Positions 38,995 through 63,425 are shown, numbered from the whole stretch's first letter. The stretch is DNA of 63,425 bases, filler included, from Candidatus Woesearchaeota archaeon (GCA_018399355.1; 4 parts of 4 records of this genome joined end to end with filler, not necessarily neighbours in it), one strand, 5' to 3'. The notes: generated by a model not told the origin, from the letters alone. Made by a program: numbers and translations.

Positions 38995-39082
38995 AAAATA
39001 TATTTCTCATCTGTATTTATATATTTTTTTGTAATTACTTTAAAAAGCTTTAAATATAAGCCGTCTATTTTTTTAATTTAAG

Positions 39083-39940
39083 ATGCTTTTTTTGTTTAAT
39101 GCAATTGCCCTCATAAGCCTCGTATTTGCAAGCCTCACAGACATAAAAACAAGAGAGGTTCCTGACTGGCTTAACTACGGGTTAATAATATTCGGGCTTT
39201 TTTCAAGGCTGATTTATTCATTTGTATTGTCTGATTTTAGCTTTTTCTTTTATGGTCTTGCAGGATTTTTTGTTTTTTTCATAATCGGCAACCTTATGTT
39301 TTATTCTGCCCAGTGGGGCGGTGGAGACAGCAAGCTTTTGATGGGCCTCGGAGCTTTGATTGGACTTAATCTAAACTTTACAGAAATTCCATTTATCTTT
39401 ATGTTCTTCATAAACATAATGGTTGTAGGGGCTTTTTATGGGCTTTTCTGGAGCTTTTTGTTGGCTGTTAAAAACTGGAAAAAATTTTCTAGAGATTTCA
39501 GCATCAGGCTAAAACAAAAAGCAAGAATGAGAGCAATTGTGATAATCTTTTGCCTTTTAATTCTTTCATCTTCGTTTTTTATAAATGAGAATTTTTTAAG
39601 GATGATGGTTGTGTTTTTGGCAATATTCACATTTATTATATTTTACCTTTCATTGTTTATAAAATCCATAGAAAAAACATGTATGCTTAAGTACGTTAAT
39701 CCAGAACAACTCACAGAGGGAGACTGGATTGCAAAAGATGTAATTGTAAACAAGAAAAGGATTGCAGGCCCAAAAGACCTTGGGATAGAGAAACAGCAGA
39801 TAAAAAAGCTTATTGAGTTTAAAAGAAAAGGCCTTGTTAAAAAAATCCTTATAAAAGAAGGCATACCCTTTGTGCCGAGTTTTCTTATAGCCTTTGTTAT
39901 AACCTTACTCTATGGCAACTGGATTTTATTATTCCTATAG
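39083..39940 (+). CDS. prepilin peptidase (A24, PibD/FlaK-like)
   Basis: Two catalytic Asp motifs (TDIKTREVPD and WGGGDSKLL); C-terminal GIPFVPSF; multiple transmembrane helices. Confidence 0.9.
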   Translation: MLFLFNAIALISLVFASLTDIKTREVPDWLNYGLIIFGLFSRLIYSFVLSDFSFFFYGLAGFFVFFIIGNLMFYSAQWGGGDSKLLMGLGALIGLNLNFTEIPFIFMFFINIMVVGAFYGLFWSFLLAVKNWKKFSRDFSIRLKQKARMRAIVIIFCLLILSSSFFINENFLRMMVVFLAIFTFIIFYLSLFIKSIEKTCMLKYVNPEQLTEGDWIAKDVIVNKKRIAGPKDLGIEKQQIKKLIEFKRKGLVKKILIKEGIPFVPSFLIAFVITLLYGNWILLFL

Positions 39941-53786: not shown

Positions 53787-53886
53787 NNNNNNNNNNNNNN
53801 NNNNNNNNNNNNNNNNNNNNNNNNNNNNNNTTAATTAATTAANNNNNNNNNNNNNNNNNNNNNNNNNNNNNNNNNNNNNNNNNNNN
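53787..53886. other. artificial contig linker
   Basis: N44-TTAATTAATTAA-N44. Confidence 0.99.
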
Positions 53887-55290
53887 AGTTCCATTTTCCC
53901 AAAATAAATCTTTTATTTCATCATCTGAACTATTCCAGACATTAAAAGTCATATTAATCCAATCACCTGAACTATAAGAAATATTAAAGGCGAAATCATC
54001 CACATCACTTGTTGAATTATAATAAGGTGTTGGATTATTTAATGTTATTGATGGTAAAACATTCGGTGTATAAAATATTCCAGTTCCATCATTATATAAA
54101 TCATTAATTTCAGTAGGAGATAATGTTCTATTCCATACTCCTATTTCATCCATATAACCAATATATCTTTCATAATTTCCATAGCCAATTTTTAAATCTT
54201 GGTCACTCCAATGATTATTACTATTTTTTGGTCCACAATCATCTAATACTCCATTTTTATATAAACAAGCACCAGAACTATTTGAAACATATACAATATG
54301 ATTCCATTCACTTAAAGTTATTGCAGTTCCTAGAATCAACCCATTATATGCAACTATTCTAGGTGTTCCATCAATAAATAATCCTGCACCTGCAACTCCG
54401 GGATTTCTTCTAATAAATAAATCACTTGTTCCTAATGTTGAATTTATCCAAAAATTTAATGTAAATGTTCCAGTATCCCATGCTAAAAAATTAGGCACTC
54501 TACCATTCTGAACATAAGCATTATGTGTTTCATCAAAATATCCCCCCTTTCCATTTTTTCCATAATTATCATTGAAAATTATCTGTCCAACACCTCCTGT
54601 TAAATTTCTTGAACCATTAATTATATTTTCGTTAGTTTCAAAATTCCAATAATCTGTTAATCCAACATTAAAACTTGAAGTCCATTCTGCCCATTCAGTT
54701 GTTTCTAATCCCTGAATATTCAAAGTCCAATCTAAATTATCTTTTTCACTTTTCTTTCCTGTAATCTTCCATTCATAAGTTCCTGCCTTTAACGATTCTC
54801 CGTTATATTCTTTCCAAGTATTTTCTGAAATAGTTTTTGTTCCATTTAAAATTCTTTCACATTCAGTTAATTCTTCTTTATTTGTTGAACAAACTTGGTA
54901 ATAATTATCTACCTCTGTTTCTATTGTTCCATTCTTAATGTAAATCTTTTGTTGATTATAGTCTTTCAATTCTTCTTTATTTCTTTTCAAATCATAAATA
55001 TTAAAATCATTAAATAATTCCAAATTATAATAAAGAGTTGTTGTTCCTCGTGCTTCACAATTTATTAAACAGAAATCTGTATTATAATCCAAAGTTGTTT
55101 CTGAAAGTTTTTTATCTTCTGAAAGTTGCCCTTTATCCCAAACGTTTATCTTTCCGTATTTCTCGTTTGTTTCATAAACTTTATAATTGTCTGTTTCAAA
55201 ATCTCCAATTAATCCAAAAGTATCTGCTGAAATAACTCCGGCAAATAAGATTATACAGATCATTATCATAAATAATTTTTTAGTAACCAT
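53887..55290 (-). CDS. secreted LamG/concanavalin-A-like domain protein, putative receptor-binding adhesin (3' truncated)
   Basis: Signal peptide MVTKKLFMIMICIILFAGVISA; YWNF..., FTLNFWIN, WNHIVYV, LYKNG and GYMDEIGVWNRTLSPTEINDLYN LamG motifs; many N-x-S/T sequons. Confidence 0.85.
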
Positions 55291-55831
55291 AATATGCCTC
55301 CTCTCTTTTTCCCATTCTAACAAACATAATAATTCCTCCTGCCATTCCAACAATTGCAACAATGATTGGCAATTGTGCAAGAATCCAATTTGATCCTGTA
55401 AAATTTGCAAAGGTTGAGGCCAAAGTTGTTGTTGCAGATATTGTTTCATAAGCATTGCTTATTGCCACAGAAACTATAACTGCAATAATCACAATAAAGA
55501 TGTAAGGAATAAAGAATACCGGCTTTGTTGTCACCATGTAAGATCCAATAAAGATTGCAATAATCATTCCAAATATTAAAAAGATTGAGATCCAATATAA
55601 AGCATCAAAAGATCCAACTGCACTTCCCAAAGTATTTTCCAAAACAGTTGAGGCATTATTGTTTCCATCACCGACAAGATTCATGCTTGGAATATTCTCT
55701 CTTAATTCATCTGTTGCCTCGTTGGTTATGTAGATAAAAACTCCTGAAAATAAAACAAGCACAAAAGCAACAATCATGAAAATAAAAAGATCTGTGAAAC
55801 CTCCTCTCTTATCTTTAAAGATCTCTTTCAT
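55280..55831 (-). CDS. 4-TM membrane protein with prepilin-like N-terminus, putative virion structural protein
   Basis: KDKRG/GFTDLFIFMIVAFVLVLF leader; four hydrophobic helices arranged as two hairpins. Confidence 0.6.
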   Translation of the reverse strand: MKEIFKDKRGGFTDLFIFMIVAFVLVLFSGVFIYITNEATDELRENIPSMNLVGDGNNNASTVLENTLGSAVGSFDALYWISIFLIFGMIIAIFIGSYMVTTKPVFFIPYIFIVIIAVIVSVAISNAYETISATTTLASTFANFTGSNWILAQLPIIVAIVGMAGGIIMFVRMGKREEAYYGY

Positions 55832-56046
55832 ATTTTTTTTCTCCTATCAAAATTTATTTTAAATTCTAATTGTTGGATTTCTCCCATCAATCTTTTTTCA
55901 ATTAAATTCCATTCAGGCATCTTGACAATTTCATTTGTGATTCTTGTTGCACCTCTAAACTCTCCTTTTCTTCTCATGATCTGCTCTTGAATTTTCTTGA
56001 TCCTTTTCCGAAACTCATCATCAACTTGCATTGGAGATCTCACCAT
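55828..56046 (-). CDS. small basic protein, possible ribbon-helix-helix DNA-binding protein
   Basis: PMQVDDEFRKRIKKIQ beta-alpha-alpha pattern; overlaps both neighbours in the operon. Confidence 0.5.
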   Translation of the reverse strand: MVRSPMQVDDEFRKRIKKIQEQIMRRKGEFRGATRITNEIVKMPEWNLIEKRLMGEIQQLEFKINFDRRKKI

Positions 56047-56846
56047 TTGAATTGCCTCCTCTTGCTTGATCTTCTTACTGCCTCATCTTCATCCATTCCA
56101 CGATCCATGAATCCTTTAATTGTGTCATTCATTGTGTGGATGTAAAAGATCCATGCAAGAGATAAAATCACCATTGGAAACATTGCAATCGCTGAAACAT
56201 AGAATAAAACCTTGAAAACTCCTGAAAGACCAACATAAGCAATTGCAAAACCTGAATTAAATTGCCAAACACTAAAACAACCAACAACAAATAAAACATG
56301 GCAAACCCAATAAGATGCCAATTTTCCTGCTGGATTTTCAAAAATAAATATTCCAATTAAACTTAAAACAAATAAGACCATCAAAAACCACATAGAATTA
56401 TTAAATATTTCTGCATGTCCTGTGTCTAATTTTTCGCCGTAATTATTCACAATAATTTCAAAAGATTTTAAACCACCTTTAAGTGAATTGTTACAGTAAG
56501 CAATAACACTCAATGTTCCAATCTCTGTGAAATTTCCCTCATCAATTTCAAACACATAATAATCATTTAATCCTGACAAAACATCATTTTCATTAAAGAT
56601 ATATTCTCCTTGATCATTATAAATCGTTAAGTCACAGTCTGCATCTGTAACTTCAAGACCATCATCAACATCTGTTGCATAAACATTGACAGTGATATTT
56701 TTATTTAATGCAATTGCATCAGCAACTTGAACACCCAACTGCAAACCTGTCGCTGTTTCTTGTGGAGGTGCTGAACTCACGAGAGAGATTGTGCTTATTA
56801 AACAAAACATCAAAATTATTGAATAAAGAATTTTCTTATTAAACAT
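56040..56846 (-). CDS. membrane protein: signal peptide, beta-rich extracellular domain and three C-terminal TM helices
   Basis: N-terminal hydrophobic signal, acidic beta-rich domain with two Cys and sequons, three hydrophobic segments. Confidence 0.7.
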   Translation of the reverse strand: MFNKKILYSIILMFCLISTISLVSSAPPQETATGLQLGVQVADAIALNKNITVNVYATDVDDGLEVTDADCDLTIYNDQGEYIFNENDVLSGLNDYYVFEIDEGNFTEIGTLSVIAYCNNSLKGGLKSFEIIVNNYGEKLDTGHAEIFNNSMWFLMVLFVLSLIGIFIFENPAGKLASYWVCHVLFVVGCFSVWQFNSGFAIAYVGLSGVFKVLFYVSAIAMFPMVILSLAWIFYIHTMNDTIKGFMDRGMDEDEAVRRSSKRRQFKW

Positions 56847-57576
56847 ATTTTCCTGCAATGTATCTTAAAGGATTTAACAGGCCTCTTGTTCTTGGTTGCC
56901 CTCCTGATGCATTAACTGTCAGACCTGATCCCATCATTCCCCCTTGTGAATTTTGTGCAACATTGATCATCTTTCTGAAACTTTCTCTCTCTTGGCCATC
57001 TTTGGCTCTTGCATAAGCAGAATGAACAATGTCAGTCATCGCACCAACAAGAGATGCATACTCTTTTCTTTTATCTTCATCATCCATTCCCATCTCATCA
57101 TATTTCAAAAAAATAAGATCATTCAATCTCTTTCCAAAATCTAAAACCTTATATCTGATTTCCTCCTCTGTGTAGTCGGCCAAAATTGTGTTTCTATTAA
57201 CATACATGCTCAACAACTTCATGCACAGTTGAACTCCGTGTTTGTTTAAGGTATTGTTTTCAGGTTTTGGGTTATCTTTCCAAATGATTTGTCCGTTTTC
57301 AAAAGCAACAATATCTCCTCTTAAAACATGTTCTGCCTTTTCTAAAATATCATTTAATTCTAATTGCCATCGTGCAATATCATCTGATGCTTGTGATCCA
57401 AAAGAAGAATGTGAGGCAGTTGATCTTGGATCATTTCCTCTGTTGTTTTGGGTTTTGTTATAAGCACCTTGCAAATCTTCATCTTCTAATTCTTGAACTG
57501 CTTTTTGAATTTCCTCTTGTGAAAATCCTTGATTTTTTAAACTTAAAAGATCTTGATGACTTAATTGAACTGCCAT
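56839..57576 (-). CDS. hypothetical protein (viral)
   Basis: 245-aa ORF heading an operon; GAGGT ribosome-binding site and upstream BRE-TATA (AGAAAAAGTTTATAAA on the minus strand). Confidence 0.7.
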   Translation of the reverse strand: MAVQLSHQDLLSLKNQGFSQEEIQKAVQELEDEDLQGAYNKTQNNRGNDPRSTASHSSFGSQASDDIARWQLELNDILEKAEHVLRGDIVAFENGQIIWKDNPKPENNTLNKHGVQLCMKLLSMYVNRNTILADYTEEEIRYKVLDFGKRLNDLIFLKYDEMGMDDEDKRKEYASLVGAMTDIVHSAYARAKDGQERESFRKMINVAQNSQGGMMGSGLTVNASGGQPRTRGLLNPLRYIAGKYV

Positions 57577-57649
57577 TTAAAACCTCTTTTTATATTCACC
57601 ATATACAAATTATGATCCACTAATTTATAAACTTTTTCTATTGCTATGC

Positions 57650-60600
57650 TCATGCTATCCTAACACCTCTCCTTATTTCAAACCCTGTCAAGATCTTTTT
57701 TAATCTTGCCTTTGCTTGTTTTTCAGATATTGTTTCGGCCTTTAATCCAATTGCTCTTGATGTGAAGTCAGGCAAATAAAGAAGATCTTGAACACTCTTT
57801 GATTTCTTTTTTCCCTTTCCTCTCACTGCTCTTGCAGGAGGGAAATAAATTGGAATTGTAGGGATTGAGGGGATTCTCGGCTCTGGGATTCTTGGAGTTG
57901 AAATGCTTATTGGAAGATATTTCACTCCAACACCTGTTGATAATAATTGAGAGATCTGTGCAGTTGCACTTCTTTGTGCTGATCTTTGTGCAGTTGATTG
58001 TTTTGTTTCTACATTATTTTTTAAAAGATTTGCAACATTTATTTTAAGTCCAATGTCTTGATCTGCCTTTAATCGACTTGCACTTGCTGAAAGAATATTT
58101 GATGCAAGAGTTGTCTTTGATCCAACACCAACTGCCTGATCAATTTTCATTAAATTTTTTATTTGTGTTTTCACTGAAATTGTTGGAGTTGTTGGTGCTT
58201 GTTTAAGAATTGTTTTTGTGATCTGATCTGTTGTTGAAATAGGTGCTGTCTTTGTTGATGTCCCTTTAAAAGATTCTTTTAAAATATCTTTAACCTCTGT
58301 CACCCTCACATCTGATCCAAATGTTTTTGAAAATGGAGTTTTAAGGCCTCCTCCTCTGAAAGATCGAACTCCTCCACTTCCCAAACCTGATTGTTTAAGC
58401 AACTTTGTTTCATCAATTAAAATTGTTCTTCCTCCACTGAATGATCTTGTGAGATCAATTCTTAAATTTCCTGATTGTTTTAATAAAACTTTAATCTGAT
58501 CTGTCCTTGAAATTTGTGCAAGATTCTTATAAGTGATCGGCTTATAAACAATAAAATCATCTACTTTCCCAATTCTTTCAAAACCTTTTAAGAGATCTGA
58601 TGACTTTGCAATTGATTTTGATGTTGAAAGATCAAAACCTCTGATCTTAAAAGGTTTTTCAAATGCAGAAATAGAAAATCTTTTTTGCAACACTCCTGAA
58701 ACTTTATCGAGATTTGAAATTTTATCTCCAACATTTAAACTAATAAGTTCTCTCTCAATAACAGAAATGTCTTTGATTGTTCTTGCACCTCTTGTTTTAA
58801 TTCCCAATGTTTTATCAATTGTGACAACTGGTTGCTTTCTTGAAAATTCAAAGATCCCTAATGCTTTTTTTCCTTGAACTGCCAAAATTCCACGACTTAA
58901 ATATTGCTCAATGATTCTTGGTTGAAAATATCTCAAAGTTGCTTTTGCTTGTGATGATGTGGAACCTCCCCTTTTAGTTAAGAGATCAAATGCTTTCTGA
59001 TAACCTGATTTTGAAGTTGTTGAGAAAGATCCTCTTAATCCTGAAAAAGTCGTTGTAAGGCCTCTCTGTGCATAAGGAACACCCTTATAGATCGGATCTA
59101 ACCCTAAAAGATCTCTCCATCTTGTTGAAACAACTGTCCTCCTCCCTGCCACTCCAACTTGTGAGAGTTTTTGATTTTCAAACACAACACGATTCATACT
59201 TTTTATGTCCTTTCCAACAGTTGCACTTGCCCTCAAATCTTTCACGGGTGATGCGATCTTAACTGCTTTCACAGTTGGTTGTCTTAAATATGAAACTCCC
59301 TTTGCACTCAAAGAAACAGACGAAACTCCCAACATCAATGCACCTGTCCCCTTTTGCTCAATTGAAGTTGTTGGTGACAAAACAAGCCCTGCACCTCCTG
59401 TTGCAAATGCAATATCTAATCCAACAAGAGTTGAAGTTGGCAATGATGAATAAGCAACTCCTCCTGTATATAATGCACCTGCTGTCAAACCTGCCCTTGT
59501 TGGTGATTTAACAAATGAAATTCCCAATGATCCCAAACTTAAACCTGCCATTTTTAATCCTGCACCAACACCCTTTAATCTTTCTTTATAAGGCACTTCT
59601 TCAAAAATTAATTTATTAAGATCTTGTGTGTAAGTTTCAGAATATTGTTTTTCATATTTTGAATAAATATCTGATTTTTGAAATTCCTTAAATGCTTTAT
59701 CAACATCCTCGTCGGTCTTTGCACTAAAAAATGCCTCTCTTCCAACATCACTTCGATAAAATAATGATGACACTTCCTTGTCTGCTTGTTCTTGTTTTGA
59801 TTCTTTAAACTCTTCATAAGTTGTTTCTCCCAATTGTCTTTCAATTTCTTTTTCTTGAATATCCAAAGATAAACTTCCCAACTTTTCTTGCCCTCTTGTA
59901 GCATAACCCTCAACATCTGTTTTTGGCTCTTTCTTTCCAAAGGAAATTAACTGAACTTTTGGCATATTTGGTGATCCTGTAAGTTTAAAATCCCATTTAA
60001 CATAATCATCTGCTATGTCGAGGCCTTGCTTTGCCTTTCCTGTAACATAGGAAAAACCTTGTGAAATTTTAGATTTTGCAGGTTGGATGATTAATTCTTG
60101 CAAACTCTTCTCATACCATTTCCGATCGTCTGCAACTTCTTTCTGTTCTTGTGGAAGATTAACCTCTGGATTTTCTTTTAAAAATTCTTGATATGCTTTT
60201 TCTTGTTCTTGTTTTAATGCATCCCCTGTCAGATATGTTGTTGTTTCCTTTGTATATCCTCCCTGTCCTGTCCCTGTGAAAACCTCTTGCCTTTTGATCT
60301 CACCTGTCTTTGTATCTCTCACAGTAATTGTTCGCACTTCTCCTTTATCCATTCCTCCCATCTGTCTGTTTGCACTTGAATCAAAATGTGTGACAGTTCC
60401 TGTTTCAACTGCTTGATTTATTCTTCCTTTATCGATGTCAGGAAACATTGCATAAAGATATGCTTTTCTTCTTTCCTTTTTTGATCCTGTTCCAATTCCC
60501 TCACGAAAAGCATTCATTTCTCTTATTTCAGATTTCGGTCTGTTGTAACCCCAAAAGGCATTTCCTCGATCAACACTTTGTGCAGATGTTATAAGGTTTC

Positions 60601-60883
60601 TAATTTTTGTTAGTTGTTCTTGCTCTCTTTTATATTTTTTATAACCCTCTGTTTGTTTCAATTCCGTCGGTGACATGATCCCTTGACGATATTTTGGAGA
60701 AATAGAATTATAGATCTGCTCATAATTTTCATAAGTGGCCTGTGAGATTTTTTCTCTTGCCTCATTGATTCTCTTTTCTTCTAATCTTGCTCTTGTGAGA
60801 TCTTGTTGTGCCTTAACTCTCTCTGTTCTTGTCGGTCTTGTCTGCACTTCTTTTTGTTCTAATTGTTGAGAGAGTTTCGCCAT
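57650..60883 (-). CDS. large (about 1077 aa) hypothetical protein with central Gly/Ala-rich hydrophobic segments and a basic Pro-rich C-terminus
   Basis: Long uninterrupted ORF: charged helical N-half, GxxxG-rich segment, K/R/S/T-rich C-half. Confidence 0.75.
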   Translation of the reverse strand: MAKLSQQLEQKEVQTRPTRTERVKAQQDLTRARLEEKRINEAREKISQATYENYEQIYNSISPKYRQGIMSPTELKQTEGYKKYKREQEQLTKIRNLITSAQSVDRGNAFWGYNRPKSEIREMNAFREGIGTGSKKERRKAYLYAMFPDIDKGRINQAVETGTVTHFDSSANRQMGGMDKGEVRTITVRDTKTGEIKRQEVFTGTGQGGYTKETTTYLTGDALKQEQEKAYQEFLKENPEVNLPQEQKEVADDRKWYEKSLQELIIQPAKSKISQGFSYVTGKAKQGLDIADDYVKWDFKLTGSPNMPKVQLISFGKKEPKTDVEGYATRGQEKLGSLSLDIQEKEIERQLGETTYEEFKESKQEQADKEVSSLFYRSDVGREAFFSAKTDEDVDKAFKEFQKSDIYSKYEKQYSETYTQDLNKLIFEEVPYKERLKGVGAGLKMAGLSLGSLGISFVKSPTRAGLTAGALYTGGVAYSSLPTSTLVGLDIAFATGGAGLVLSPTTSIEQKGTGALMLGVSSVSLSAKGVSYLRQPTVKAVKIASPVKDLRASATVGKDIKSMNRVVFENQKLSQVGVAGRRTVVSTRWRDLLGLDPIYKGVPYAQRGLTTTFSGLRGSFSTTSKSGYQKAFDLLTKRGGSTSSQAKATLRYFQPRIIEQYLSRGILAVQGKKALGIFEFSRKQPVVTIDKTLGIKTRGARTIKDISVIERELISLNVGDKISNLDKVSGVLQKRFSISAFEKPFKIRGFDLSTSKSIAKSSDLLKGFERIGKVDDFIVYKPITYKNLAQISRTDQIKVLLKQSGNLRIDLTRSFSGGRTILIDETKLLKQSGLGSGGVRSFRGGGLKTPFSKTFGSDVRVTEVKDILKESFKGTSTKTAPISTTDQITKTILKQAPTTPTISVKTQIKNLMKIDQAVGVGSKTTLASNILSASASRLKADQDIGLKINVANLLKNNVETKQSTAQRSAQRSATAQISQLLSTGVGVKYLPISISTPRIPEPRIPSIPTIPIYFPPARAVRGKGKKKSKSVQDLLYLPDFTSRAIGLKAETISEKQAKARLKKILTGFEIRRGVRIA

Positions 60884-60904
60884 GCATACTTCACGCATAC
60901 ATAG

Positions 60905-60940
60905 TTTATAAAAGTTTGCTTAAAAACAAAGTTTTATAAA
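60905..60940. promoter_or_regulatory. symmetric back-to-back archaeal TATA promoters
   Basis: TTTATAAAAGTTTG-N8-CAAAGTTTTATAAA inverted repeat (13/14 match) between divergent genes. Confidence 0.65.
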
Positions 60941-60968
60941 TCTGCACACACTATTTTTAAAATAAAAG

Positions 60969-61529
60969 ATGGCAGGAAAAAATCAAAAGGGTGTGAAAGG
61001 ATTTCAATCGGTTGAAGAGGGAGGAGTTCATACAGGCACAGAGGCATGGAATATTGCACAATATTTCACAGGTTATTCAATTGCAATTCCATTAAGAGAT
61101 CTTAATGATCTTGAAGATATTGCAAGGTTTGGTGCTGTGGGAATCGATGATGATCTTGGAATGGATGATGATCAATATGCAAAGAGAAGAGCAGATGCTG
61201 TCAAAAGATATTGGCAAAAGTTAAGGCAAATCGTCGCTGATACACAATTCAAAGTCAAAACAGGTGATCGAACAAATGCAAAACAAATTCATGAATGGCT
61301 TAAAAAAGTTCCAAAATTTTTTGATGGCCTCTTATATCTCCAATCAAATAATGTTTCTCACAGTCAAAGCATAAAAGTTAATGAAGATTTTCTCACTGCC
61401 TTGCTTGATAAACTAATCGAAAAAAAACAAAATTACTTGGGAATTTTAGATCATGCAGGTTTGATTTTCAGAGAAGTCGATGAGGTTGATCTTGATAAAA
61501 TGTCGAGTGAGTTTGTGCATGGAGGTTGA
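60969..61529 (+). CDS. hypothetical protein (viral)
   Basis: 186-aa ORF immediately upstream of the ATPase and co-oriented with it. Confidence 0.7.
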   Translation: MAGKNQKGVKGFQSVEEGGVHTGTEAWNIAQYFTGYSIAIPLRDLNDLEDIARFGAVGIDDDLGMDDDQYAKRRADAVKRYWQKLRQIVADTQFKVKTGDRTNAKQIHEWLKKVPKFFDGLLYLQSNNVSHSQSIKVNEDFLTALLDKLIEKKQNYLGILDHAGLIFREVDEVDLDKMSSEFVHGG

Positions 61530-61533
61530 TTAA

Positions 61534-62454
61534 ATGTCAAAATATGTGATGTGGAGTTTAAAGAGAGTTGTCAATTCAGTTTGTGATCGACTGACAAATA
61601 AGTTTGATGTCTTTCTTGTTATCGAGGGAAGAAGAGGTCTTGGAAAATCTACTCTTGGATATAAATTAATGAAACTTGTTAAAAGAGAAATGAAAGCAAG
61701 AGGTGTTGTTGGTTATCAGTTTATTCCTCGACGAGATCTTCTCTATGAAAGAAAAGAAGTTTTAAATTTTTTCCATAAGTGGCAACATTCAGGGATGGCC
61801 GATGAGATGATCAATGTTTCTTTTAATCGTGATTTTTATAATGAGGATCAAAAAGATTTGATTAAGATGATTAACATGAATCGAGATCACAACAATTTCT
61901 TTATTGCTTGTGTGCCTCAATTTAAAAATCTCGACAGCCAAATTAAAAATCTTGCATCAATGAAAATCACAGTTGTCCGTCGAGGAATTTCAATAATTCA
62001 CATGCCGAACAAAACAGTTTATTCTTCTGACATCTGGGATGAAAGAGTTAATGAAAAGATTGAGAGAAGTTGGCTCACAGGAGGAATTAAAAACCCACAA
62101 TATTCTCGGCTTACAACTTACAGAGGTTTTTTGAAATTTCCAAAACTATCTAAAAAACAAGAGGCGATCTATCAAAAGATTAAAGACGATAAAAGAAACA
62201 TCATTGCAAAAGATAAGGGCTTGGAAGAAGAGGAAGAGTTGAAACCAATTGACATTATTTATAATGCTCTCGTCGATAACAAGATAAAAGACACATCAAT
62301 GCTTGACGGAATGTTTATTGCTCATGGCCTGAACATAAGATCAATGAAAGCGAAATTGAGAAACATGCTTAAAGACAATCACAAGAGAACAGATCTCACT
62401 TATTATTGTTATGGAAAAAAGGTTGCTTTGGAGGATGCAAAATATGAGGTATAA
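61534..62454 (+). CDS. P-loop ATPase, Zot/gpI-like viral morphogenesis ATPase
   Basis: Walker A EGRRGLGKST, Walker B GMADE, then NRDHNNFFIACVPQFKNLDSQIK resembling the Zot R..../...LD..IR segment. Confidence 0.7.
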   Translation: MSKYVMWSLKRVVNSVCDRLTNKFDVFLVIEGRRGLGKSTLGYKLMKLVKREMKARGVVGYQFIPRRDLLYERKEVLNFFHKWQHSGMADEMINVSFNRDFYNEDQKDLIKMINMNRDHNNFFIACVPQFKNLDSQIKNLASMKITVVRRGISIIHMPNKTVYSSDIWDERVNEKIERSWLTGGIKNPQYSRLTTYRGFLKFPKLSKKQEAIYQKIKDDKRNIIAKDKGLEEEEELKPIDIIYNALVDNKIKDTSMLDGMFIAHGLNIRSMKAKLRNMLKDNHKRTDLTYYCYGKKVALEDAKYEV

Positions 62455-62707
62455 AAAAGTTATTGGAATCAATCAGAGAGCAAAGGAGTATAAAGGGAGA
62501 GATCATATTGCTGTTTGGATTAGATACAAAGGAAAGATACCAAAGGGCAAATTGATTCATCATAAAAATGGGAATAAAAAAGACAACAGGATTGAAAATC
62601 TTGAATGTTTAACAAGGAAACAGCATGGAAAGTTGCACAGGAAACCAAACAGGAAAAGAATCAAATATCCATCAGGTGCAATAAAAGTTATTCGCCTCAC
62701 AGAATAA
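62444..62707 (+). CDS. HNH endonuclease
   Basis: HIAVW..YKGKIPKG.LIHHKNGNKKDNRIENLECLT...H..LH. Confidence 0.88.
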   Translation: MRYKKVIGINQRAKEYKGRDHIAVWIRYKGKIPKGKLIHHKNGNKKDNRIENLECLTRKQHGKLHRKPNRKRIKYPSGAIKVIRLTE

Positions 62708-62784
62708 CTCTTAATAAATGTCATTGGGTTGCAGTAGTTAATCTTATTAGGAGTCAGGATCAGGGTATGACAGCCAAACACATA

Positions 62785-62812
62785 TAAATGTATAATACCT
62801 ATTATATTCACG
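62785..62812. promoter_or_regulatory. dif-like tyrosine recombinase site (candidate att/dif)
   Basis: TAAATGTATAA-TACCTA-TTATATTCACG has 11-6-11 architecture with a TATAA-N6-TTATA core, 30 nt upstream of the recombinase. Confidence 0.45.
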
Positions 62813-62842
62813 GACAAAAAATTTGCAGGAGAGTGATTGAGT

Positions 62843-63425
62843 GTGGAAAAAAAAGAGATTGAATTGTTGAGAGAATGTTTTAAAGATAGTTTAGAAGAAG
62901 ATCAATATGCAAAAAGGACTGTGCAACTTTATCTTTTTTGGTTTGATAAATTCCCACACACACAATTAAATGATCTTGAAGAAGAAGAGGCACAGGAATT
63001 GATTAATGATTGGATCAAAAAAAGAAAACATAATAATTGTGTGGCCAGAGCATTTTTGAGAAACTATCTTAAATTTGTTGGGTTGCACAAAAAGTTTGAG
63101 ATTCCTGATCCAAAGAAAGTGAGGAAAGAATTTAAATTTAAAAAAGAATTAACACCTGATGAGATTAAGATCCTTTCAAAAGAAATGAGAAAAGAGAGTT
63201 ATTTGAATTGGTTGGCTTTTAGATTAGTTTATGAGGGAGGATTGAGAAAGTCGGAATTAAGCACTGTGAGATATAATTCTTTTTTATGGGAAAAATGGCT
63301 TGAAGATATTGATAAACAAATTCACTTGAAAGTCACAGGAAAAGGAAACAAGGAAAGATTTGTTTTGATCTCCTCAAAAACCATGCAAAGACATTGGCGA
63401 CACATTCAAAATAAAAATGGAATTT
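62843..63425 (+). CDS. tyrosine recombinase/integrase (XerA-like), 3' truncated; not in the ORF track
   Basis: Manual translation MEKKEIELLRECF...RTVQLY...LTPDEIKIL...LVYEGGLRKSEL...VTGKGNKERFV shows the catalytic Arg box I and Lys loop. Confidence 0.9.
   Translation, partial: MEKKEIELLRECFKDSLEEDQYAKRTVQLYLFWFDKFPHTQLNDLEEEEAQELINDWIKKRKHNNCVARAFLRNYLKFVGLHKKFEIPDPKKVRKEFKFKKELTPDEIKILSKEMRKESYLNWLAFRLVYEGGLRKSELSTVRYNSFLWEKWLEDIDKQIHLKVTGKGNKERFVLISSKTMQRHWRHIQNKNGI

Follow-up and report, generated by a model that had tools for sequence, protein, structure and literature searches.

The window analysed here is a stretch of 63,425 nucleotides from a genome of a Candidatus Woesearchaeota archaeon, in which separate contigs are joined end to end, and this report concerns its last part, positions 53887-63425, which is the entire contig C28 (9,539 bp) of this genome. 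An artificial N-spacer (53787..53886) joins it to the preceding contig, C9, which holds the RNA polymerase genes left of the spacer. A preliminary description had taken C28 for an integrating archaeal virus with a spindle-type or filamentous extrusion module. All ten open reading frames (ORFs) listed there were present with the claimed sizes and orientation, in divergent left and right arms, and family scans of the window proteins matched no cellular gene in C28 and no terminase, portal or HK97 capsid. The gene arms are real, but the adhesin and the recombinase at the two ends of C28 are both incomplete, and the hairpin capsid proteins that had been invoked are not encoded inside the window. 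We consider it quite probable that C28 is a fragment of a circular double-stranded DNA archaeal virus of 21-31 kb, which belongs to a very diverse lineage and makes spindle-type virions by non-lytic extrusion.

The leftward arm (minus strand) starts with a 1077-aa basic protein (family 3; 57650..60883), which has a net charge of +65 and a conserved C-terminal motif, was found at 41 loci, and is probably an internal virion protein for DNA binding or DNA delivery. A 1091-aa protein of genome G292 was considered as a relative of this family, and the link was unsupported. Then follows a 245-aa soluble protein (family 7; 56839..57576), which ranks as one of the lineage's most widely conserved markers and had 48-71% identity to close relatives and 18-30% to distant ones. 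The next gene encodes a 268-aa protein (family 8; 56040..56846) with a signal peptide, an extracellular domain and three transmembrane (TM) segments, the signal and the three segments being called by hydropathy; nothing was above cut-off in the Pfam scan. The 72-aa basic protein (family 12; 55828..56046) had no match in the family library scans, kept its position across 24 loci, and is probably a small DNA-binding regulator. Beside it lies a 183-aa 4-TM protein (family 13; 55280..55831) with four hydrophobic segments by hydropathy and a class III-like leader, probably a minor virion or pole protein. The arm closes with the N-terminal 468 aa of an adhesin (family 9; 53887..55290), which has a signal peptide and a LamG domain (PF13385 Laminin_G_3, E 3e-13) and is cut by the contig end. 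Complete family 9 adhesins in relatives were 1,100-1,370 aa long with membrane segments at the C-terminus, and Ig-like and DUF2341 domains were found in them; this protein may act in receptor binding.

The rightward arm (plus strand) starts with a 186-aa protein (family 1; 60969..61529), which was found in 44 loci, always immediately upstream of the ATPase, and is probably a partner of it. The SSV1 154-aa gene at the equivalent position was rejected as a homologue, as no similarity was found. The arm continues with a 306-aa P-loop ATPase (61534..62454), an HNH endonuclease (62411..62707; PF13392 HNH_3, E 2.5e-18) and the N-terminal 195 aa of a tyrosine recombinase (62837..63425; Phage_integrase, E 1.3e-5), which is cut by the other contig end and whose best NCBIfam match was archaeal XerA. 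Pfam thus confirmed the LamG, HNH and recombinase assignments, but the Zot-like label given to the ATPase matched only at E 0.026. The HNH gene is indeed part of the arm in C28, but it is a sporadic insert outside the core, lying between ATPase and recombinase in just 2 of 43 loci. By hydropathy, the 245-, 186-, 306- and 1077-aa proteins had zero membrane segments.

Archaeal TATA promoters had been proposed between the two arms. TATA-like boxes were located at 60905-60912 (minus strand, 21 nt ahead of the 1077-aa start), at 60933-60940 (plus strand, 28 nt ahead of the 186-aa start) and at 57624-57631 (minus strand, 47 nt upstream of the 245-aa gene). The proposal was borne out by relatives, since a box lay exactly 21 nt upstream of 17 of 43 family 1 and 18 of 41 family 3 homologues, against a background of any such box in 4.9% of random 80-nt windows, and a sigma-70 promoter scan stayed at chance (31 observed vs 37 expected). 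The divergent TATA-like pair at 60905..60940 drives the left arm and the ATPase arm, and the position of the box implies leaderless transcripts.

Homologues of the ATPase were then collected, and 414 of them (at 90% clustering) were found among 879 candidates. From 191 metagenome stretches that encode an ATPase relative 80 were kept, and gene families were defined by ORF clustering of 51 sequences of at least 5 kb, some of which are near-duplicates and hence not independent. A single gene order ran across the clustered relatives, and the left-arm order was kept in 24 of 24 loci having all five genes tested. Five IMG/VR records were complete circles with terminal repeats (20,766-31,253 bp), and 15 gene families, with profiles to which four of the five circles contributed, were common to all five in a fixed order. 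C28 corresponds to roughly 40% of such a circular genome. C28 does not represent a conserved chromosomal locus, because none of the order's 400 other genomes held a close ATPase; the ATPase profile matched 2 of these 400, both distant (E about 1e-7). A pattern search of the genome contigs for the ATPase gave 35 candidates, 0 of them confirmed, and the 50,697 phage records searched by tblastn with ATPases and hairpin contained no match.

Public sequencing reads yielded short pieces only and did not extend C28. Contigs C62 and C47 come from other elements, since C62 had no end overlap with C28 and the C47 recombinase was only 33% identical. About 40 kb of the bin consists of fragments of at least four related viruses (C62, C55, C47, C82, C83, C79, C44, C59, C69, C68, C53, C72 and C84), some of which carry capsid-candidate and peptidase genes, and a further two-helix protein, short and starting with a class III-like leader, is encoded on C80. 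Distant relatives of 21-45 kb (L129 from G284:C21, L219-L222 and L197 from G636, L215 from G759:C9) had a rearranged gene order and paired hairpin genes, were GATC-poor, and were stand-alone contigs in DPANN bins. The lineage probably spans several families. Some members carry divergent tRNA genes of their own, tRNA-Ala(TGC) or tRNA-Met(CAT) (L123:19509-19581, L081:426-497, L121:9755-9827), and in one member (L042:13048-15398) an EcoRI-type methylase adjoins a GmrSD-HNH nuclease, and the two may form a restriction system carried by the virus.

The ATPase gave the clearest link to known viruses. Its Walker A and B motifs were invariant in 40 aligned members, and the best PHROG of all five close members was phrog_5484 (E 8e-7 to 1.2e-3), a group that also takes in His1 gp16 (E 3e-62) and the SSV1 251-aa ATPase (E 5e-101), which we take to be B251. 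Comparison of the ATPase profile with His1 gp16 gave a probability of 88% (E 2.9e-6, 182 columns), and with the SSV1 ATPase only 41%. The predicted structure (mean local confidence, pLDDT, 82) matched inovirus Zot, ATV ORF286 and a Nitrosopumilus spindle-shaped virus protein among viral Foldseek hits, and the PDB search returned chiefly clamp loaders with template-modelling scores of about 0.3. By hydropathy the protein has no membrane anchor, a property that, as described in a preprint on wyrdviruses, sets wyrdvirus and B251 ATPases apart from pI (bioRxiv 10.1101/2021.07.29.453957). Judged from sequence, the ATPase belongs with the SSV1 B251 and His1 gp16 group, and it is probably the motor for genome extrusion or packaging.

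The capsid candidate lies in the part of the genome beyond C28. All five circles encode one or two two-helix hydrophobic paralogues downstream of the adhesin and two small membrane proteins. The short form of this hairpin has about 105 aa and the long form about 185 aa with a variable loop insert, which brings homologues up to 616 aa, and the predicted structure consists of helices 2-48 and 54-98 (pLDDT 69). At E 1e-3 the hairpin profile recovered 927 representatives (50% clustering), the weak ones among which may be unrelated hydrophobic proteins. The two paralogues of G041 have 154 bp in common at their 3' ends (98%), which recalls the annotated direct repeat shared by SSV1 vp1 and vp3. Among named Atlas clusters the nearest were VP1_VP3 (0.84) and His1_capsid (0.81), which serve only as leads, and among 52 hydrophobic test proteins SSV1 VP3, SSV1 VP1 and His1 gp21 ranked 3, 4 and 5 with probabilities below 3%. 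The fold search with the hairpin model gave 4 BFVD matches at E >4 and otherwise generic helical bundles (Z <=8.5), and PDB sequence searches gave nothing significant. A hairpin match in G560 was rejected as a host class III protein. From architecture, context and ATPase we infer that the hairpins are the major capsid proteins. The spindle-type reading of the preliminary description stands as to a virus-like element with a spindle-type morphogenesis module, but the tests for capsid homology were non-significant.

A second core gene of the circles encodes a 140-aa membrane protein, found in all five, and 20 of 20 aligned members matched PF01478 (Peptidase_A24) when matches up to E 0.05 were counted (best 6.7e-6). 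Both catalytic aspartates, D20 and D75, were invariant, and the Atlas score for A24 was 0.94. The viral profile recovered cellular prepilin peptidases of 270-370 aa in 91 of 301 genomes of the phylum. Compared with the cellular archaeal class III signal peptidases FlaK, PibD and EppA (MEROPS A24), the viral protein is like them in the PF01478 match and the two invariant aspartates, and unlike them in that it has just 140 aa, reads GxAD for GxGD and is a core viral gene. This genome has its own 287-aa A24 prepilin peptidase at about 39077-39937 (C9:2071-2931). The presumed substrates carry matching leaders: a basic leader ending in K/R-G before the first hydrophobic helix was found in 98 of 148 hairpins, 23 of 24 relatives of the 183-aa 4-TM protein likewise had the class III motif, and leaders ending in K/R-G or K-A also occurred on a third membrane protein in some genomes. 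Like-styled leaders were present in 25 of 924 ORFs of this cellular genome. The virus itself would then cut the leaders and free membrane-stored subunits for assembly during ATPase-driven extrusion. The most distinctive feature of the lineage, as far as sequence can tell, is this virus-encoded prepilin peptidase paired with class III leaders, the viral peptidase gene lying beyond the window.

The same leaders and A24 peptidase would also suit a filamentous, pilus-like extruded virus, in which class III-processed hairpins polymerise as a thin filament round the genome. The Zot-family matches of the ATPase (Pfam E 0.026; Foldseek ranks 4, 5 and 7) and the non-significant homology of the hairpin to spindle-virus capsids point the same way. 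Pilins and the inovirus coat protein have one N-terminal helix, whereas the hairpin has two long hydrophobic helices; the ATPase is unanchored and B251-like, unlike pI, and genomes of 21-31 kb also speak against a filament. We regard a filamentous virion as very unlikely, and prefer a spindle-type one.

To look for hallmarks of other element types, 123 proteins were scanned against PHROGs and Pfam at E 1e-3, namely all ORFs of at least 80 aa of one circle, those ORFs of the remaining four that lie outside the core, and 42 of the 52 larger accessory ORFs (10 were dropped as near-duplicates); the following results refer to this set. No terminase, portal or capsid family was found, which speaks against Caudoviricetes, and the tail-type matches were one weak tail-chaperone (3e-4) and one tail-fibre on an accessory ORF. 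VirB4, VirD4 and relaxase, as marks of a conjugative type IV secretion system, were all without match, as were the FlaI/PilT and TadC families. No DNA polymerase family was found, and family 18, a winged-helix protein of two of the five circles and a candidate replication initiator, had helix-turn-helix matches only. The accessory genes included HNH nucleases, DNA methylases, a PAPS reductase, a topoisomerase and a transposase. The preliminary description had named Caudoviricetes or conjugative hallmarks, or a conserved chromosomal locus, as outcomes that would speak against its virus; as no such hallmarks were found and C28 is not a chromosomal locus, neither outcome arose.

These results also bear on the alternative of a plasmid-like or integrative element without free virions, which would pass DNA directly between cells through a pilus or cell-contact apparatus that it builds. 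Many membrane proteins, a circular form and a XerA-like recombinase would agree with such an element, and thaumarchaeal integrative-conjugative elements are described as carrying prepilin peptidases and pilins (PMC6563490). Its expected machinery (VirB4, VirD4, relaxase, FlaI/PilT, TadC) is missing from the 123 proteins, its sole ATPase belongs to a virus group, and its accessory load of HNH nucleases, methylases and tRNAs is phage-like, so that we give this explanation very little probability and keep to a virus with virions.

The recombinase catalytic motifs were intact in 39 of 39 full-length homologues, and the enzyme was closest to archaeal XerA (NCBIfam, E 7e-15), so resolution of dimers is as plausible as integration. 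A search for att sites with 10 host tRNAs against 105 viral sequences gave 13-bp chance matches only, and no close copy of the viral tRNA-Met was present in 301 genomes. The intact motifs would suit an integrating virus, but the five complete records were all free circles, the recombinase is XerA-like and no att site was found; a temperate lifestyle is still likely. A separate 13-kb element in G292:C24 (L103:11406-20000 and L104:1-6650), bearing a 16-bp end repeat, has integrated at a tRNA-Arg that contains an intron. It encodes an integrase, a resolvase, a B251-like ATPase related to the present one (86%), a prim-pol and a D5 helicase and has no capsid gene, and it may be a satellite of spindle-type viruses that resides in a DPANN chromosome.

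For the host, composition was analysed. The tetranucleotide correlation of C28 was 0.30, compared with 0.65-0.83 for the 43 other contigs (which partly contribute to the reference), and its GATC content was 8.4 per kb, compared with 0.9 in the rest of the genome. In a composition search none of 40 genome pieces, plus C1 of this genome, fitted C28 (best 0.38), and a simple repeat scan of this genome found no CRISPR array. Fragments of related elements in the bin were partly GATC-rich and partly GATC-poor. Among close relatives of similar GC (C28, L012-L091) GATC ranged from 0 to 19 per kb, in 41 DPANN and other low-GC genome pieces it was under about 3 per kb, and some members encode Dam-type or other methylases. 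The GATC spread suggests distinct host restriction and methylation regimes.

This pattern leaves room for a spindle-type virus of a non-DPANN archaeon, which low GC and shared small-size fractions brought into DPANN bins. C28 is an outlier in tetranucleotides and GATC, the 40 sampled genome pieces all misfit, the bins of relatives include non-DPANN genomes, and class III leaders are common across many archaea. On the other side, L059, L121 and G636:C37 are GATC-poor members of the core family, the last being closely related by its ATPase (E 1e-85) and host-like in GATC. In a survey confined to this DPANN class, the family 7 profile matched 7 of 391 genomes, with four matches in one of these. 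Two relatives (G364:C12 and G292) were contiguous with DPANN chromosomes. G364:C12 holds a divergent relative (families 0, 7, 13 and 23; E 1e-9 to 6e-5) contiguous with 17.6 kb of chromosomal genes, including an eRF1 71% identical to that of this genome, with a profile correlation of 0.84 to the rest of G364 and a resolvase at the junction. Beside this junction, three genes resembling ATP-citrate lyase subunits were observed (L217:640-3438 of G364:C12). A non-DPANN host is a minority possibility. In our judgement the host is almost certainly an archaeon, probably one in the DPANN class of this genome, and only with low probability the organism of this genome; the DPANN link of the preliminary description is supported by other genomes (the family 7 survey and G364:C12) but contradicted for this genome by composition.

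Several observations weigh against the spindle-type DPANN virus that we prefer. Capsid and peptidase genes are missing from C28 itself, and attempts to join it to the bin contigs that carry them failed. The hairpin reached threshold with no capsid family of Pfam, PHROG or NCBIfam, its profile and hhalign comparisons with His1 gp21 and SSV1 VP1/VP3 were all non-significant, and two host membrane proteins outranked these three capsid proteins in the 52-protein test. The GxGD motif of the viral A24 protein reads GxAD, and 1 of 3 peptidases scanned passed the Pfam gathering score, most being near or below it. A replication protein was not found in the scanned genomes, and for the core family neither an att site nor flanking host sequence turned up. 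Close relatives of 21-22 kb occurred as stand-alone contigs in Thermoplasmatales and Dactylococcopsis (cyanobacterial) as well as Woesearchaeota bins, so binning alone is unreliable. The G364:C12 relative is divergent, its assembled 15 kb contained neither a hairpin nor an A24 gene, and it may result from mis-assembly.

The gene content suggests the following mechanism. Divergent archaeal promoters serve the membrane and structural arm and the ATPase-recombinase arm, and in the circles the gene region after the adhesin and two small membrane proteins supplies the one or two hairpin paralogues. By sequence, hairpins, the 4-TM protein and sometimes the third membrane protein carry basic leaders, and the virus has its 140-aa A24 peptidase gene. 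As major capsid proteins, the hairpins may be held in the membrane until the viral peptidase cuts the leader, while the B251-like ATPase would push the genome out as the hairpins coat it, and the XerA-like recombinase might resolve dimers and/or integrate the circle. We put forward, tentatively and as a possibility, the wider proposal that a large family of spindle-type DPANN viruses matures its capsid and minor virion proteins in the manner of pilins, through a minimal class III signal peptidase encoded as one of its core genes, and that the loop of the second capsid paralogue presents a hypervariable domain. If true, the kind of enzyme responsible for capsid maturation in spindle-shaped viruses, long sought, would be known. 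The viral A24 peptidase with class III leaders offers a cheap direct test for one lineage and ties virion extrusion to pilin processing. SSV1 VP1 is described as made as a precursor that is cut by an unidentified protease, SSV1 having no clear protease gene (PMC5748691).

Overall, our verdict is a new family-level spindle-type virus, known here from genes alone, whose host is likely a DPANN archaeon and probably not this organism. Known DPANN viruses are few, Nanobdellota and Thermoplasmatota together accounting for 30 provirus regions in one survey as described (PMC13573593), and the present lineage is large, with 414 ATPases, 927 hairpin-like representatives and four or more distinct elements in one bin. 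It also calls for caution, as unlinked viral contigs are present in DPANN bins. In the literature consulted, supplementary annotations being outside its scope, no description of the lineage or of a peptidase in a spindle virus was found, and there was no overlap in the parts considered of PMC12451623, PMC10848311, PMC9796341, PMC12647753, PMC13107129, PMC13465236 and PMC13573593. The last of these lists by name the seven families of DPANN viruses from Wu, Liu and Ni 2024 (Nat Microbiol 9:3362), a study that reportedly mentions spindle-shaped viruses, and the lineage may be among them.

Compared with all reading frames of SSV1 and His1, only the ATPase among the family profiles matched annotated genes at E <0.005. 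The lineage resembles Fuselloviridae (SSV1) in the ATPase PHROG group, a circular genome, a tyrosine integrase near the ATPase and paired capsid genes with a shared direct repeat, the SSV1 capsid protein also being made as a precursor, but the core gene set beyond the ATPase is not shared. With Halspiviridae (His1) it shares the ATPase PHROG group; His1 is linear with a protein-primed family B polymerase, whereas the genomes here are circles in which the 123-protein scan found no polymerase. Common to the spindle-shaped assemblage as a whole are the two-helix hairpin and its paralogue pair, the unanchored B251/gp16-type ATPase and the large adhesin gene. The Danakil nanohaloarchaeal viruses DNSV-1 and DNSV-2 are described as 21-22 kb genomes with an ATPase, two capsid paralogues, an integrase and a large adhesin (bioRxiv 10.1101/2025.02.15.638363), and are similar in the DPANN link, size, gene set and lack of a recognisable replication gene. 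They differ in nanohaloarchaeal hosts and in an adhesin of >1,900 codons with a glycoside hydrolase domain, and their main text names no peptidase; this likeness is judged by description. Wyrdviruses of Asgard archaea, also compared by description (bioRxiv 10.1101/2021.07.29.453957), likewise have one or two capsid paralogues, an adhesin and a pI-like unanchored ATPase, but differ in their Asgard hosts, genomes up to 20 kb, variable replication modules and a main text without a peptidase. Between adhesin and ATPase they have five conserved genes of unknown function, and the present lineage has six core genes. By these descriptions, the layout of the lineage is closest to that of the DNSVs and wyrdviruses.

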